Origin: Patescibacteria group bacterium
GTDB lineage: Bacteria > Patescibacteriota > Minisyncoccia > Moranbacterales > UBA2206
NCBI GenBank assembly: GCA_022711335.1
Contig: JAKLFF010000002.1
Location: forward strand, 17,441 to 81,440
Reading direction: 5' to 3'
DNA: 64,000 nt
Shown in pieces: positions 19,322 through 48,066 of the stretch. Each line of letters starts with the position of its first letter. Positions within the stretch are counted from its first letter, which is position 1. The notes below the pieces were generated by a model. It was given only the letters and a program-made list of their open reading frames with translations. It ran no database searches and was not told the DNA's origin. The position numbers and the translations under genes were made by a program.

Positions 19322-20452
19322 TTATGCTATGTGATTAATATATTCTTCCAATTCCCTCTTAAACCTCTCTTTGCTAAACTCCTGCGCTTTATTGATTATC
19401 ACCTGCCTGTCATATTCTTTTTCTTTTTCCATAAACCTCCGGATGCAGTCCGCAACGACTTCAGCAGTTTGCGCGCCAAAAAATTCCCCGGTAATTCCTT
19501 CAGAAACTATCTCCTTTGCTCCGCCTTTTCGGATAGCCAAAACCGGCACGCCATGCATCATAGCTTCAACTGGCGCTATTCCAAAATCATCAACGGTTGG
19601 AAAAATAAAAGCGCGCGCGTTCTCATAATATTTAGAAATTTTTTCATCCGGAAGCCAGCCCAGAAATCTGATGTTTTTGTTCGCAATCGATTCCAGATGT
19701 TTTCGCTCTCCTCCCTCACCGATAATAATCAGCGGCAATTCCAGCTTATTAAAAGCTTCGATAACACAGTTTATTCTTTTATAAGCCGACAGCCGTGAAA
19801 CAATCAGAAAATAACCTTCTTTTTTCCCCTTCTCCCCTTGGGAGAAGGTGCCCGAAGGGCGGATGAGGGACAAACTGCCTACCGGAGGATATATTGCAAT
19901 ACTCTTTCTTCGATAATACTTCTCAATCCTATCTTTTGTATATTTCGAATTAGCAATCAAATAGTCCGGCCGATCCGCCGCTGATTTGTCCCAGATGCGA
20001 AGATAGGTAAGAAGCGGGCGGATAAAAAAATTTAATTTCTCCTTTCTATTTTCAGCCAAATATTTTTCGCTATAATCCCAAACAAACCGCATCGGGCTAT
20101 GGATATAAGCTATATGCTTAGTGTTAAGCTTAGTTACTATCCCCTTGCTCCAAGCTCCCGATGAAGAAATTATCAGATCATAATCGCGAAGATCGAATGT
20201 TTCCGGAGCCACCGGAAAAAGAGGCAAAAGCCAGCGGTATCTTTTTCTCAAAAACTTAGGGAATTTTTGGAGGAAAGAAGTGTGAATTTGACGGTTTTCA
20301 AACTTTCCTCGCATTTTTTCCCTGTCATGAAGCAAAGTATAGATTGGAGCATCCGGAAACATCTCCGCCATCACTTCCAAAACCCTCTCCGCCCCGCCAT
20401 ATTGGATGAGAAAATCATGGACTAAAGCTACTTTTAAGTTTTTTTTAAGCAT
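19322..20452 (-). CDS. GT4 (group 1) glycosyltransferase carrying an in-frame GC-rich repeat insertion
   Basis: FLIVSRL...GW LPDE...FIFPT... EGFG-like C-terminal GT-B domain. The peptide SLSLIRPSGTFSQGEKG is encoded by repeat 19824..19869. Confidence 0.8.
   Translation of the reverse strand: MLKKNLKVALVHDFLIQYGGAERVLEVMAEMFPDAPIYTLLHDREKMRGKFENRQIHTSFLQKFPKFLRKRYRWLLPLFPVAPETFDLRDYDLIISSSGAWSKGIVTKLNTKHIAYIHSPMRFVWDYSEKYLAENRKEKLNFFIRPLLTYLRIWDKSAADRPDYLIANSKYTKDRIEKYYRRKSIAIYPPVGSLSLIRPSGTFSQGEKGKKEGYFLIVSRLSAYKRINCVIEAFNKLELPLIIIGEGGERKHLESIANKNIRFLGWLPDEKISKYYENARAFIFPTVDDFGIAPVEAMMHGVPVLAIRKGGAKEIVSEGITGEFFGAQTAEVVADCIRRFMEKEKEYDRQVIINKAQEFSKERFKRELEEYINHIA
19824..19869. repeat. GC-rich palindromic element inserted in-frame inside the GT4 gene
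   Basis: ccccttctccccttgggagaaggtgcccgaagggcggatgaggga. Confidence 0.85.
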
Positions 20453-20625
20453 AGTGTTCCGATTTTCATTTTTTCAACGATTTTTTAAGTTTAATAAGAT
20501 TAATGATATATTGTATGCATAATCTCAGCAGTAGTTAATATTATACTAAAAGTTCATACAACCCACAACTTTTCGTCATTATAATATATCACCAAACTAA
20601 GTTCACATATAAACTAGTTATAGCG

Positions 20626-20656
20626 AAAAAATCACAGCTTCCTGTGATTTTTTTTG
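20626..20656 (-). terminator. bidirectional rho-independent terminator
   Basis: AAAAAATCACAG-CTTC-CTGTGATTTTTTTT, just downstream of the stop of 20674..21801. Confidence 0.7.
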
Positions 20657-20673
20657 TTTAAGCATTGTATTTA

Positions 20674-45683: not shown

Positions 45684-45689
45684 TTTTTT

Positions 45690-45800
45690 AGAATTTAGAA
45701 TTATGAATTTAGTATTTTGAATGAGAATATTGAATGCTGAATAACTATTCTAAATTCTTTATTCTTGATTCCCATTCTAAATTCCAAATACTAAATTCAA
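45690..45800. repeat. about 115-bp AT-rich palindromic element, copy 2 of 2 (partner 1780..1900)
   Basis: ttagaatttagaattatgaatttagtattttgaatgagaat...ttcccattctaaattccaaatactaaattc. Lies immediately 5' of gatC. Confidence 0.6.
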
Positions 45801-45804
45801 AATT

Positions 45805-48066
45805 CTATTTAAATAGCCTCTTAAATTCCCTTTCATTAATTATACCAACTCCCAGCTTCTTCGCCTTGTCGTATTTCGATCCCGGGTTTTCGCCGGCCAC
45901 GACATAATCGGTTTTAGCGCTCACGGAACCGGAAACGTCTCCGCCAGCTTTTCTAATCATATCTTTTGCCTCGTCTCTTGTAAAGTTTTCGAGCTCTCCG
46001 GTAAGGACAAAAGTCTTGTTTTGCAATTTGTAATTAGCAACTAGTAATTTAGAATAATTTTCTAATTTTACTCCTAGCCTATCCATTTTTTCCAGAAGTT
46101 TTAAATTATCTTTATCGCTAAACCAATCAACTAGGCTTTCTGCCGACTTTTCCCCTATGCCCTTTATGCCCATCCACTGTTCTTTATTGATTTTAGAAAA
46201 ATATTCGATAATGTCTTTTAAATTTTTAATTTTGCATTTTGAATTGTCATTTTGATTTTTGATTTTTGATTTTTGATTTATTGCATTACTGTATATTTTT
46301 TCGATGATTGCTAAATTCTTCGATATTAAAACTGAGCTTTCCTCGCCCAAATATCTGATCCCCAGCGCAAACAAAAATTTTTCAAGCGCTATCTTCTTGC
46401 TTTTTTCAATGGAAGCGATCAGATTGTCTGCTGATTTTTCCGCAAAGCGCTCAAGCGGCTCCAGGTCGCCCTTTTCGAGTTCAAAAATTTCCGCCGCGTT
46501 AGATATGATTCCTTCATTCATCAATTGTTCAACTATTTTTTCGCCCATTCCGTCGATATTGAAGCCTTTTTTGCTGGCAAAGTGAATTATTTTTTCTTTT
46601 TCCACCGCAAAACATTTCGGATTTAGACAGTATGTCGCCGCACTTGTTTTAGAGGTTCGACCTCTTTTGGTCGTTTCGGTCGAGAGAGGTCGAACCTCTA
46701 GATTTTCTCGAGAAACCGCCCCTCCGCAAATAGGACATCTTGCGGGCATGTGAAAGATTTTTTCATTTCCCGTCCGCAGGTTTTTGATCACCTCGACGAC
46801 TTCTGGAATAATATCCCCAGCTTTACGAACAACCACCGTGTCTCCAATTCTTATGTCCAATCTTTTTATCTCATCCTCATTGTGAAGCGTGGCGCGGGAA
46901 ACAGTCGATCCGGCGACAGAAACCGGACGCAGATGCGCAAGCGGAGTGAGAGCTCCCGTTCGTCCAACCTGCACTTTTATATCTTCAACTACCGTTGTCA
47001 CTTTTTCGGCCGGAAATTTGTAAGCCACGCCCCAGCGCGGAGATTTTCCAGTATACCCCAGCGCTTTTTGAATTCCATTCGAATTAATTTTAATCACAAT
47101 TCCATCCAGGCCATAATTCAAACTGTCCCTTTTTTCAATCCATTTTCGACAGTATTCTTCAATTTTCTCTATGTTTTTACAAAGTTTATATTCTTCATTG
47201 ATATTAAATCCCAGCTTTTTAAGCAATTCTAACTCTTCTATTTGCGTTTCAGGAATCCCGTATTCCCCCCTCTCCCTCTGAGAGAGGGTGCCCGTAGAGC
47301 GGGTGAGGGAAATATAATCCATATCATAAATAAAACACTCCAGTTTCCTTGACGCCGCCACTTTAGGATCCAGCTGCCGGATGGTTCCAGCCGCTGCATT
47401 CCGGGAATTAGCGAACAAAGCCTCTTTTCTGCCAGCTCTTGTTTCATTAATTCTATTAAGTTCATCTTTTCCCAAATAACATTCTCCGACCACTACGCAA
47501 TCAACTGGATAATTTAGCTTCAAGGGTATGCTGCTTATGGTTTTCAAATTATTAGTAACATCCTCTCCGATTATCCCGTCTCCCCTCGTTGCCCCCCGGA
47601 TAAATATTCCATTTTCGTAAGTTAAAATCACTTTGAGCCCATCAATTTTCAACTCACAACAAAAATCAATATAAAAAACATCCCCCCTCTCCCTTTGGGA
47701 GAGGGTGCCCGAAGGGCGGGTGAGGGAAAACTTATTTATTAGTCTTGAGACCTTTTCCTCCCACTTTCCCAATTCTCCAAAGCTAAAAACATCATCAAAT
47801 GACCATTGCCTCACTTGATGGCGCACCTTTTGGAATTTTGAAAGCGGTTTTCCGCCGATTCGGCCGATAGGAGAATCCGGGAGTTTCAATTCCGGATATT
47901 TTTCCTCGAGCTCTTTGAGTTCGCGGGTCAGGGAATCATAAACCTCGTCCGTAGCATCCGGCTTGTCCAGAATATGGTATTCGTAGCGAAGCTTATTTAT
48001 CTCCGCCGTCAGCTTTTCTATACGGTTTTTTACTCCTATTTTATCCATATATTGATTATATCCCAT
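45805..48066 (-). CDS. ligA: NAD-dependent DNA ligase carrying three in-frame repeat insertions
   Basis: Adenylation motif CELKIDG; OB, Zn-finger (CPICGG...C), HhH and BRCT regions. At 753 aa it is about 80 aa longer than typical LigA because of the inserts at 46219..46285, 47265..47310 and 47683..47727. Confidence 0.9.
46219..46285. repeat. AT-rich element (ttgaattgtcattttgatttttgattttt) in-frame in ligA, coding [19 protein letters not shown]
   Basis: Near-identical core to the insert at 21600..21680 in the GT4 gene (coding KSKIKSQNDNSKLKS). Confidence 0.75.
47265..47310. repeat. GC-rich palindromic element in-frame in ligA (codes [16 protein letters not shown])
   Basis: cccccctctccctctgagagagggtgcccgtagagcgggtgaggga. 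Confidence 0.85.
47683..47727. repeat. GC-rich palindromic element in-frame in ligA (codes [15 protein letters not shown], 8 aa before the KxDG lysine)
   Basis: cccccctctccctttgggagagggtgcccgaagggcgggtgaggga. Confidence 0.85.

Follow-up and report, generated by a model that had tools for sequence, protein, structure and literature searches.

A triplex-motif repeat with a hairpin in its second loop lies in frame within ligA and a glycosyltransferase gene of a CPR bacterium and brackets a DUF559 nuclease gene

A dispersed repeat with eight copies in a 64,000-nt stretch of DNA (hereafter the window) from a bacterium of the candidate phyla radiation (CPR) is, judged by its sequence, a hairpin-bearing variant of the BoxC/PIT/TMECO intrastrand-triplex repeats, which have been known since the 1990s. 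The repeat class itself is known, and the features that set the present case apart from its published description are the in-gene copies in a CPR bacterium, the hairpin in the second loop, and the bracketing of DUF559 nuclease genes. On balance, we lean slightly toward the reading that this class of repeat constitutes the inverted ends of a mobile DUF559 cassette, from which the gene-less and solo copies are derived.

Architecture and copies of the element

The element is constructed in the order of a pyrimidine arm (Y), a loop, a purine arm (R1), a second loop harboring a hairpin (H2), and a purine arm (R2) that mirrors R1. Perfect stems of 8-9 bp with 3-nt loops are present in seven of the eight copies, the exception being the degraded c6. 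All eight copies were found at the sites given by the first-pass annotation, and they are set out below with the genes that they flank or occupy.

c1, 2325..2377, + strand: intergenic triplex-motif (TM) element whose loop 2 holds a long hairpin, paired with c2; Y TCTCTCCC, loop TCT, R1 GGGAGAGA, H2 TGTCCCCGCCTTGGCGGAGAC, and R2 AGAGAGGG, an exact mirror of R1
c2, 2410..2460, - strand: intergenic TM element, inverted partner 33 bp from c1; R1 GGGAGAGGA, H2 TGTCATGTATTCATGAC, and R2 AGGAGAGGG, an exact mirror of R1
c3, 6254..6300, + strand: TM element 16 nt 3' of the DUF559 stop codon, tail toward the gene; right-hand inverted end of the cassette
DUF559 gene, 6316..6666, - strand: Vsr-like PD-(D/E)XK nuclease of 116 aa, ATG at 6666
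c4, 6675..6723, - strand: TM element forming the left inverted end of the cassette, 9 nt 5' of the start codon of DUF559
GT4 glycosyltransferase gene, 19322..20452, - strand: assigned by Pfam, with c5 in the interdomain linker
c5, 19824..19869, + strand: TM element running antisense to the GT4 gene and in frame with it; Y CCTTCTCCC, R1 GGGAGAAGG, and R2 GGATGAGGG, the three arms covarying mirror-wise
ligA, 45805..48066, - strand: NAD-dependent DNA ligase, 753 aa, domain set complete (Pfam), host of c6 and c7
c6, 47265..47310, + strand: TM element in frame in ligA, hairpin partly decayed
c7, 47683..47727, + strand: TM element in frame in ligA, exactly the consensus of the first-pass annotation
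c8, 51141..51179, + strand: intergenic classical short-loop TM, CTCCCCTCCCT-TCC-AGGGAGGGGAA-TTT-AAGGGGAGGGT

The consensus proposed earlier describes c3 and c5-c7 but not c1, c2, and c4, which share the same architecture and carry other hairpin-2 sequences. Copies c2 and c4 are located on the strand opposite to the others, and c1 and c2 form an inverted pair without a gene. A structural detector, defined by a perfect Y/R hairpin of at least 8 bp followed by a mirror purine tail, yielded 8 detections in the window, while 100 dinucleotide-preserving shuffles gave 0.01 on average; these detections represent seven distinct copies, as c1 was recorded on both strands and the decayed c6 escapes the detector. 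The earlier view of a dispersed, structured, repeat-type DNA element is supported.

The previous description in terms of two hairpins leaves out the defining third arm, namely the purine tail mirroring the purine arm of hairpin 1. This arm is an exact mirror in c1, c2, and c4 and a mirror with an allowed A-to-T change in c5 and c7, and a three-way compensatory change across the arms was observed in c5. For purine arms that are asymmetric, taken from the window and from 80 further loci, the mirror arrangement fitted the third arm better in 100 cases and the direct repeat in 5, with 33 ties. The second loop extends over 12-21 nt in c1-c7, forming a hairpin in c1-c5 and c7 and being degraded in c6, while it is limited to 3 nt only in c8. 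Second-loop lengths are bimodal, with 3 nt in 96 copies and a second group at 12-23 nt. Of the long second loops, 63 are distinct, and about 25 of these consist of a T and a near-perfect hairpin whose sequence is different in each. Both H1 and H2 fold as DNA hairpins in the folding computation, and a weak outer stem (TCCC/GGGA) is possible in the long-loop copies, so a three-way junction is also possible.

The first-pass annotation regarded the element as undescribed, a view that gives way before its architecture, which is that of the BoxC/PIT/TMECO repeats reported from E. coli, other Enterobacteria, and Cyanobacteria (PMC4666352). The TMECO consensus CCCTCNCCC-N3-6-GGGNGAGGG-N3-GGGNGAGGG was demonstrated by NMR and CD of E. 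coli oligonucleotides to form a triplex in vitro, and DMS footprinting did not reveal it in living cells (Holder et al. 2015, PMC4666352). The present element shares with this class the order of the arms, the inverted pairs, and the strong copy-number variation between relatives; moreover, the exact arms CCCTCTCCC, GGGAGAGGG, and GGGTGAGGG are present in c6 and c7, and the classical 3-nt second loop is common to c8. Since a short second loop (3 nt in TMECO and 1-6 nt in the ITxF search) is found only in c8, the element is filed as a variant, and the longer loops of the other seven copies place them beyond the reach of the published search. Two further differences are that TMECO has been described as always intergenic, whereas c5, c6, and c7 are within intact ORFs, and that a CPR host and a link to DUF559 are seen here, whereas Holder et al. 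found no mobility gene for TMECO. In Rfam, no family matches the element.

Copies inside ligA and the GT4 glycosyltransferase gene

In-frame copies within intact genes, two in ligA and one in the GT4 gene, had been reported together with their peptides, and both were confirmed. LigA is encoded in a single open frame, matches the adenylation, OB, HhH, and BRCT domains of Pfam, and has an alignment with 2owo, the LigA of E. coli, at E = 8e-143 that places K140 in CELKIDG. The c7 insert corresponds to residues 114-128 (15 aa) and the c6 insert to residues 253-268 (16 aa, nucleotidyltransferase domain); the distance from the end of the c7 insert to the KxDG lysine K140, previously put at about 8 residues, is actually 11. 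Two additional repeat inserts, unrelated to c6 and c7, are also held by ligA. In the GT4 protein, the c5 peptide reads (S)LSLIRPSGTFSQGEKG, and the insert SLSLIRPSGTFSQGEKG starts at residue 193.

The DNA of these copies is conserved to an extent that the surrounding genes are not. In relatives, only 4 of 90 nt differ in the ligA elements in comparison with 23.5% in the rest of the gene, and differing third codon positions amount to 2 of 30 in the elements and 318 of 683 (about 46%) elsewhere (Fisher p = 5e-6). Copy c7 shows no difference in relatives whose LigA is 86-92% identical, and a single loop base is changed at 78%. Copy c6 has accumulated hairpin-breaking substitutions, among which the TCG to ACG change is common to the closest relative (P0002), indicating that c6 is an old, vertically inherited copy. 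A GT4 homologue with 79% protein identity carries a homologous c5 insert in which 27 of 27 arm nucleotides are identical and H2 has been swapped for a different hairpin.

These nucleotide comparisons in ligA and GT4 already contradict a reading of the inserts as ordinary protein loops specific to the lineage, or as artefacts of sequencing or assembly, which we consider extremely improbable. The first-pass annotation had named the same peptide over divergent DNA in relatives as the observation that would speak for an ordinary protein segment. Relatives do share the peptide at the same site, but the DNA beneath it is nearly unchanged, with third codon positions close to invariant, and the same DNA also occurs between genes and in unrelated genes, which favors the element. 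An assembly artefact, of the kind considered earlier, is ruled out, as the same inserts are present in five independent assemblies.

The insert sites are hypervariable in alignments of LigA and GT4 homologues, and other repeats or nothing at all occupy the corresponding loops of other Moranbacteria. In the AlphaFold2 model of LigA, pLDDT falls below 50 at residues 121-130, 262-268, 461-474, and 603-609. The inserts are lineage-specific insertions in flexible loops, in line with the earlier expectation. The further claim that copies always adopt the same frame is valid for this genome and persists as a strong bias in relatives (34 of 42 recognisable LigA inserts), but other frames and the opposite orientation do occur, as in the GT4 homologue P0132. 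By hand translation, all but one of the six frames of c7 are open, and an open frame alone is therefore weak evidence of selection.

The DUF559 gene and its flanking elements

As the first-pass annotation had noticed, the element flanks a DUF559 nuclease gene, which is bracketed by c3 and c4 as an inverted pair. The encoded protein matches Pfam PF04480 at E = 4e-38 (130 bits against a cut-off of 20.6) and PDB 3hrl at E = 2.5e-21, the latter alignment running through YIVDF...ELDGWQH with the conserved VDF...E-x-DG-x-H core, while its similarity to I-Bth0305I (3r3p) is marginal (E = 0.1). The coding sequence most likely begins at the ATG at 6666, with c4 upstream of the gene and not within it: a longer ORF extends to 6747 only by reading through c4, the alignment with the closest homologue starts at M1 of the shorter form, and the Pfam domain starts at residue 39 of the long ORF. 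The c4 purine tail AGGAGAGGG would then appear to sit at the position of a ribosome-binding site.

The cassette is missing between the same convergent genes in five loci (L091, L093, L096, L098, and L104), and these syntenic empty sites contain no TM pair; c8, for its part, is kept at the syntenic site in L002. Cassettes of Moranbacteria occur in at least five different gene contexts, and the DUF559 cassette is patchy in distribution and horizontally transferred. Across 670 kb of Moranbacteria loci, where elements are sparse (13 detections), the sole DUF559 gene is bracketed by an element pair.

The element is linked to DUF559 both statistically and by position. A survey covered 80 DUF559 loci, which represent at least 12 phyla, with flanks taken as the 130 bp next to the gene ends: 62 loci possess a flanking copy, mostly inverted, and 43 have copies on both sides, whereas the detector used sees no flanking element at the other 18. 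The hairpin density reaches 5.9 per kb within these 130 bp and 0.32 per kb farther away, an 18-fold difference. Upstream copies are in + orientation in 25 cases and in - orientation in 10, downstream copies in - orientation in 35 and in + orientation in 12, and the upstream element lies a few nucleotides from the DUF559 start codon. Left and right elements of matching types are found again in Gammaproteobacteria, Nitrospirota, and Doudnabacteria, and E. coli ycjD ends within a degenerate element copy. Element copy number varies about tenfold among related lineages. No consistent target-site duplication was detected in 34 cassette loci, and for solo copies neither a target-site duplication nor a clean filled-versus-empty junction was found. 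In the literature searched, an association between DUF559 and a triplex repeat was not found reported.

Proposed mechanism and alternative explanations

In the cassette model toward which we lean, Y and R1 would pair as a Watson-Crick hairpin, and R2 would fold into its major groove in single-stranded DNA through C.G*G and T.A*A/T triplets, the usual 3-nt second loop having grown into the small hairpin H2 in the lineage studied. Two inverted copies would serve as the ends of a compact DUF559 cassette moving among sites and phyla, with the c1/c2 pair and the solo copies c5-c8 as its non-autonomous derivatives. In this Moranbacteria lineage, solo copies of 45 nt would have inserted where LigA and GT4 have permissive surface loops or linkers; they lie antisense to the gene with an open frame, add disordered peptides of 15-17 aa, and would since have been passed on vertically with their three arms unchanged at the nucleotide level. 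DUF559 would recognise and cut the folded element, and the cutting would spread copies or homogenise them by break-induced gene conversion; such mobilisation or homogenisation by DUF559 is inferred, whereas the mirror-symmetric architecture, the loop positions of the inserts, the conservation of their DNA, the association with DUF559, and the presence or absence of the cassette at a syntenic site are direct observations. Conservation of the element DNA could alternatively arise from selection on a host function instead of nuclease-driven gene conversion. A wider proposal is put forward tentatively and with some doubt: DUF559 might be the long-missing partner of BoxC/PIT/TMECO, forming a pan-bacterial nuclease-repeat system comparable to RAYT-REP, in which a PD-(D/E)XK enzyme reads a DNA triple-helix fold, cutting and gene conversion spread or homogenise the repeats, including those in essential genes, and CPR bacteria gain a steady source of new protein loop sequence.

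It seems unlikely that the TMs are the favored landing site of a selfish DUF559 gene and not its own ends, with the repeats multiplying separately by a route such as slippage, template switching, or gene conversion; IS elements that target REPs and homing endonuclease genes nested in repeats would be the parallels. Inverted pairs without a gene, such as c1/c2 and five in E. coli (PMC4666352), could be read as empty sites, the cassette is devoid of a flanking target-site duplication, and DUF559 is related to a homing endonuclease. However, related DUF559 genes in different phyla keep the same types of element on the left and right, the upstream element is so placed, a few nucleotides from the start codon, that it seems to belong to the expression signals of the gene, and the syntenic empty sites have no TM pair. 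A functional and not selfish link is in our judgment decidedly unlikely; here the elements would benefit the host as structural DNA, for instance as sites where replication or recombination pauses, as hot spots of instability, or as signals for expression, and DUF559 would be a repair nuclease that processes them. It would accommodate the conservation of the arms across long divergence, the raised local variability of TMECO loci (PMC4666352), and the action of the DUF559 protein VsrA of Caulobacter in a DNA-damage context (PMC12907096), but not readily the tenfold copy-number differences, the patchy and horizontally transferred cassette, the decay of c6, or the finding, known through its citation within PMC4666352, that PIT elements have neither promoter nor terminator activity in E. 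coli.

An action in RNA, by which a stable mRNA hairpin slows ribosomes at domain boundaries or stabilises transcripts, is given very little weight. The inserts fall on or close to domain boundaries and linkers (ahead of the nucleotidyltransferase core in LigA, and within the linker that joins the GT4 domains), the hairpins are stable, and orientation and frame are biased; nevertheless, the mirror third arm has no Watson-Crick partner, purine-motif triplexes are not formed in RNA (PMC4666352), Rfam lacks a matching family, and the copies are mostly intergenic and are seen in both orientations. That the conserved fold is a G-quadruplex and not a triplex can hardly be sustained: classical copies do read G3N3G3N3G3N3G3, and Holder et al. 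weighed this possibility, but c1, c2, and c4 have perfect mirror arms with only two or three G3 tracts, and NMR of TMECO indicated a triplex instead of a G-quadruplex (PMC4666352).

Relation to other repeat and nuclease systems

The first-pass annotation called selection for a tolerated in-frame orientation of a mobile palindromic element unusual; palindromic repeats that colonise genes in frame are already known from the Rickettsia palindromic elements (RPEs; Ogata et al. 2000, via PMC10969869). RPEs likewise insert in frame into unrelated housekeeping genes of a small genome and add a fold-compatible peptide, but they are about 150 bp (100-150 bp) long, belong to unrelated sequence families, and lack both a triplex architecture and an associated nuclease. 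The element here also differs in that its DNA is conserved far above the synonymous expectation. In-frame insertion fits the RPEs, while the length of 45 nt and the family identity do not, and the element is taken to behave like an RPE without being one.

The REP-RAYT systems (REPtrons/REPINs) resemble the present case in that inverted copies of a short, dispersed, structured repeat stand on either side of a small nuclease gene, and in that the repeat folds as a single strand and occurs in doublets. Their enzyme is a Y1 HUH transposase, whereas a PD-(D/E)XK DUF559 protein is found here, and the element has no GTAG or CGTC tag and would fold, unlike REP, as a triple helix plus hairpin. Assignment to REP-RAYT was set aside, because the flanked gene is DUF559/PF04480 and not RAYT, and the two systems share no more than the architecture of inverted flanks. 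With regard to an origin from a MITE or IS element, inverted ends and a gene-less derivative (c1/c2) were seen, along with the lack of a consistent target-site duplication at the 34 loci, and DUF559 is, to our knowledge, not a known transposase.

The mobile homing endonuclease I-Bth0305I (PDB 3r3p) and Vsr, which nicks DNA where it is distorted by a mismatch, share their PD-(D/E)XK clade with DUF559 (PMC3424549). Unlike these two, the DUF559 gene here is free-standing, outside any intron or intein, and has no adjacent methyltransferase gene.

Significance

The triplex of the BoxC/PIT/TMECO repeats has been verified in vitro and the repeats mark unstable loci, yet no enzyme or mobility function has been assigned to them according to Holder et al. 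(PMC4666352). A positional link that spans phyla provides a testable hypothesis for two orphans, these repeats and a small nuclease family, for which YcjD of E. coli and the Neisseria protein with a crystal structure (3HRL) are already at hand as reagents. In the CPR case, repeats persist for a long time inside essential enzymes with their DNA frozen, which implies that a force besides protein-level selection acts on the coding sequence. In-gene repeats also help to account for the highly variable lengths of CPR proteins, as with LigA, whose listed Moranbacteria homologues measure between 687 and 843 aa.

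Structure and Classification of the Element

All eight reported copies of the repeat were recovered in the window, which has about 41% G+C and derives from a Candidatus Moranbacteria (Parcubacteria/CPR) genome: an intergenic pair (c1 and c2), two copies bracketing the DUF559 gene (c3 and c4), one in the GT4 glycosyltransferase gene (c5, gene at 19322-20452), two in ligA (c6 and c7, gene at 45805-48066) and a further intergenic one (c8). The identities of LigA, GT4 and DUF559 were borne out by Pfam, and the translations of the three in-gene copies agree with those of the first-pass annotation. 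A custom detector with shuffle controls was used in place of a covariance model, because the latter cannot represent a third, triplex strand. This detector scored 8 hits in the window; in 100 dinucleotide-preserving shuffles the mean was 0.01. The 8 hits correspond to seven distinct copies, c1 being scored on both strands and the decayed c6 being missed.

The copies share one order of parts, namely a TCCC lead, a pyrimidine arm (Y), a 3-nt loop, a purine arm complementary to Y (R1), a T, a second hairpin (H2) and a purine tail (R2), with an H2 sequence that varies by copy (GCCCgaaGGGC, GGCCgtaGGCC, GTCCCaaaGGGAC, GTCATGtattCATGAC, GTCCCCGCCttGGCGGAGAC). The initial description of two hairpins had missed the key feature: R2 mirrors R1 and does not repeat it directly. 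The mirror arms are GGGAGAGA and AGAGAGGG in c1, and GGGAGAGGA and AGGAGAGGG in c2 and c4; in c5, Y, R1 and R2 have changed jointly (CCTTCTCCC, GGGAGAAGG, GGATGAGGG). Among the hairpins with an asymmetric purine arm from the window and 80 DUF559 loci, the tail was the better fit to a mirror in 100 cases and to a direct repeat in 5, with 33 ties. A triple helix of the fold-back purine-motif type requires such mirror symmetry. Watson-Crick pairing of Y with R2 into an alternative hairpin was rejected, since R2 is a mirror rather than a direct repeat, and a G-quadruplex was discarded as the conserved fold because c1, c2 and c4 are devoid of four G-tracts. Rfam searches of the whole window at gathering thresholds gave only sub-threshold chance matches, so that no described RNA family fits, and those of two element regions at E-value thresholds likewise gave only sub-threshold chance matches.

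Judged by its arm sequences, through which the match in the literature was found, the element is a member of the BoxC/PIT/TMECO class (PMC4666352), with the consensus 5'-CCCTCNCCC-N3-6-GGGNGAGGG-N3-GGGNGAGGG-3' (Holder et al. 2015, PMC4666352). In E. coli K-12, this class comprises 23 copies, five inverted pairs among them, which were described as always intergenic and tied to local genome instability, and transposases, integrases and other mobility functions were never found near the repeat (PMC4666352). The exact consensus arms are present in c6 and c7, and the classical 3-nt second loop in c8, whereas the remaining copies represent a variant with a hairpin as the second loop, which was invisible to the published search because loops of only 1-6 nt were allowed (PMC4666352). 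Over all loci, the length of the second loop is bimodal, with 96 copies at 3 nt and a second group at 12-23 nt; of the 63 long loops that are distinct, about 25 fold as a T and a near-perfect hairpin, all different in sequence and spread over several phyla. The first-pass annotation was right in its observation and only partly so in its interpretation: the element, of which it knew no description, belongs to a known class, and the Rickettsia palindromic elements (RPE) are a precedent for repeats inserted in frame.

Association with the DUF559 Nuclease Gene

The 80 loci encoding close relatives of the DUF559 protein of the window cover at least 12 phyla. Up to 130 bp from the DUF559 gene ends, the density of Y/R hairpins there is 5.9 per kb, versus 0.32 per kb farther away, and a flanking copy was detected at 62 of the loci, on both sides at 43. 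The flanking copies are mostly inverted, with their tails toward the gene. The left element is unlike the right one, but Gammaproteobacteria, Nitrospirota and Doudnabacteria have one left/right combination in common, so that the elements move together with the DUF559 gene. No consistent target-site duplication surrounds the cassette at the 34 loci with complete elements on both sides. The other Moranbacteria loci (670 kb), in which elements are sparse (13 detections), hold a single DUF559 gene, which is flanked on both sides by an element pair. In E. coli, the end of ycjD falls within a degenerate copy. At the comparison locus L086 (860-900), the annotated YcjD C-terminus (...LSPSPQPSP*) is a translated degenerate BoxC/TMECO element, inverted and placed as c3 is, and an IS481 transposase gene follows in this strain.

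In the window, the cassette (6254-6723) is located between two convergent genes, which in five relatives are separated by a gap of only 80-240 bp with a terminator hairpin; in a sixth, another small gene fills the slot. The cassettes of Moranbacteria occupy at least five different gene contexts. On the best reading, a DUF559 nuclease cassette has the element as its terminal inverted repeats, and the copies that stand alone or in pairs are its non-autonomous derivatives. The DUF559 protein matches PDB 3hrl and shares a PD-(D/E)XK clade with Vsr and the homing endonuclease I-Bth0305I. From the architecture, the analogy to REP-RAYT systems and these nuclease relatives, we infer that DUF559 may recognise the folded element and might drive its spread or homogenisation. 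A defence-gene label was dropped, the PADLOC match to DpdF being only marginal. The searchable literature mentioning DUF559 yielded no link to repeats.

In the closest relative of the DUF559 neighbourhood, L088, the cassette slot (6500-7010) holds a small gene between AT-rich inverted repeats (AATTCACCTAAT / ATTAGGTGAATT), whose candidate product, judged by eye, is a four-helix-bundle / 23S-rRNA-IVS (bAvd-like) protein. Since this gene fills the slot, and the DUF559 cassette of L083 (Nomurabacteria) adjoins its homologue in opposite orientation, a hot spot for small gene cassettes is suggested.

In-Frame Copies in LigA and GT4

An alignment of 120 Moranbacteria LigA homologues, ranging from 687 to 843 aa, revealed four hypervariable spots.

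Hypervariable sites of LigA
Site 1: ahead of the KxDG motif
Site 2: inside the nucleotidyltransferase domain
Site 3: zinc-finger loop
Site 4: HhH-BRCT linker

Site 1 carries peptides resembling a translated triplex motif in about 20 homologues, site 2 in 16 and site 3 in 6, with only 3 matches elsewhere in all 121 proteins; in the remaining homologues, the sites are empty or hold translations of other repeat families. Relatives whose LigA is 78-98% identical carry the element at both site 1 and site 2; at 72% it is missing, and it returns patchily in more distant homologues. In the AlphaFold2 model (mean pLDDT 72), pLDDT is below 50 within all four sites and 84-92 in the nucleotidyltransferase core around the inserts. 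The GT4 insert lies in a hypervariable linker between two Rossmann-like halves; some relatives at 77-100% identity have it, and others at 79-81% lack it. Clean empty sites for the in-gene copies were not obtained among relatives; the insert-free ones already show about 28% protein divergence or carry other repeats at the same spot.

The earlier statement that in-gene copies always share one frame holds as a bias, with 34 of 42 recognisable LigA inserts in the antisense LSQRERG frame, and fails as a rule, since in the GT4 homologue P0132 the element runs in the opposite direction and is read in a different frame, encoding a 13-residue peptide. The bias may arise because a G-rich coding or lagging-template strand is avoided. 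Translated by hand, c7 is open in five of its six frames. We conclude that in-gene copies survive only where a flexible peptide of 15-17 aa is tolerated and the frame is open. Translational bypassing, as known for GC-rich inserts in some yeast mitochondria, is unnecessary here, since the inserts have an open frame, a length divisible by three and no matching take-off/landing codons.

Codon alignments with DNA of independent assemblies disclosed conservation at the DNA level. Between the window and a relative of 78% identity, 4 of the 90 nucleotides of the two ligA elements differ, versus 23.5% in the rest of the gene, and differing third codon positions number 2/30 in the elements versus 318/683 elsewhere in ligA (Fisher p = 5e-6). 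For GT4, where DNA of the homologues P0122 and P0125 was used, 27/27 arm nucleotides are identical at 79% identity, and all seven differences fall within the loop of the Y/R1 hairpin and H2, which is now another hairpin. Some force acts on the nucleotides of the three arms, which could be selection on structure or gene conversion by other copies. In c6, hairpin-breaking substitutions are seen, one of which (TCG to ACG) also occurs in the nearest relative P0002; the copies are therefore old and vertically inherited rather than re-inserted. No report was found in the searchable literature of the hairpin-loop variant, of long-term nucleotide-frozen residence in essential CPR genes or of the phylum-wide association with DUF559, the last being the most significant of the three.

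At L001 (ligA of P0004), the site-2 copy contains, between H2 and the Y/R1 hairpin, an extra 21 nt (CCTGCCTCGCCGGCAGACAGG) that can itself form a CTGCC/GGCAG hairpin and adds PASPADR in frame to the protein; the elements therefore seem to grow by nested hairpin insertions.

Other Repeats in the Window

The zinc-finger loop of ligA (46636-46701, residues 456-477) harbors a perfect 15-bp inverted repeat (AGAGGTTCGACCTCT ... AGAGGTCGAACCTCT), unlike the triplex-motif element, which encodes a 22-residue peptide in frame. It has no further copy in the window; similar peptides (EVRPLSTKTTKRGWTS etc.) appear at other LigA loop sites of other Moranbacteria, and it therefore represents a second in-frame palindromic family. 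An AT-rich repeat (AAATCAAAAATCAAAATGACAATTCAAAAT...) resides at 46222-46278 (HhH-BRCT linker of ligA) and 21607-21675, within a second GT4-like gene (20674-21801), and is translated in frame in these two unrelated genes as a 12-residue peptide followed by (C/L)K. In many relatives, related ISNFKFQISN-type peptides occupy these LigA and GT4 loops, and AT-rich repeats of a similar kind are found between genes and in the 23S rRNA insertions.

The hairpin repeat TCATTCCCGCGAAAGCGGGAATC is a separate REP-like family with four exact copies against 0 expected by chance, the copy at 45325 being situated between gatA and gatC.

Copies of the hairpin repeat
15345-15367 (+)
17405-17427 (-)
23350-23372 (+)
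45325-45347 (+)

The 23S rRNA gene (30288-35585, -) reaches 5.3 kb through two group I introns and further insertions, among which a 192-nt segment occurs twice at 100% identity (33306-33497, 34685-34876).

Group I introns in the 23S rRNA gene
30796-31118
32778-33018

Near the left end of the window (321-446), a 21-nt unit (AATCTYTCATYGAYCYCTGAA) is repeated in tandem about six times.
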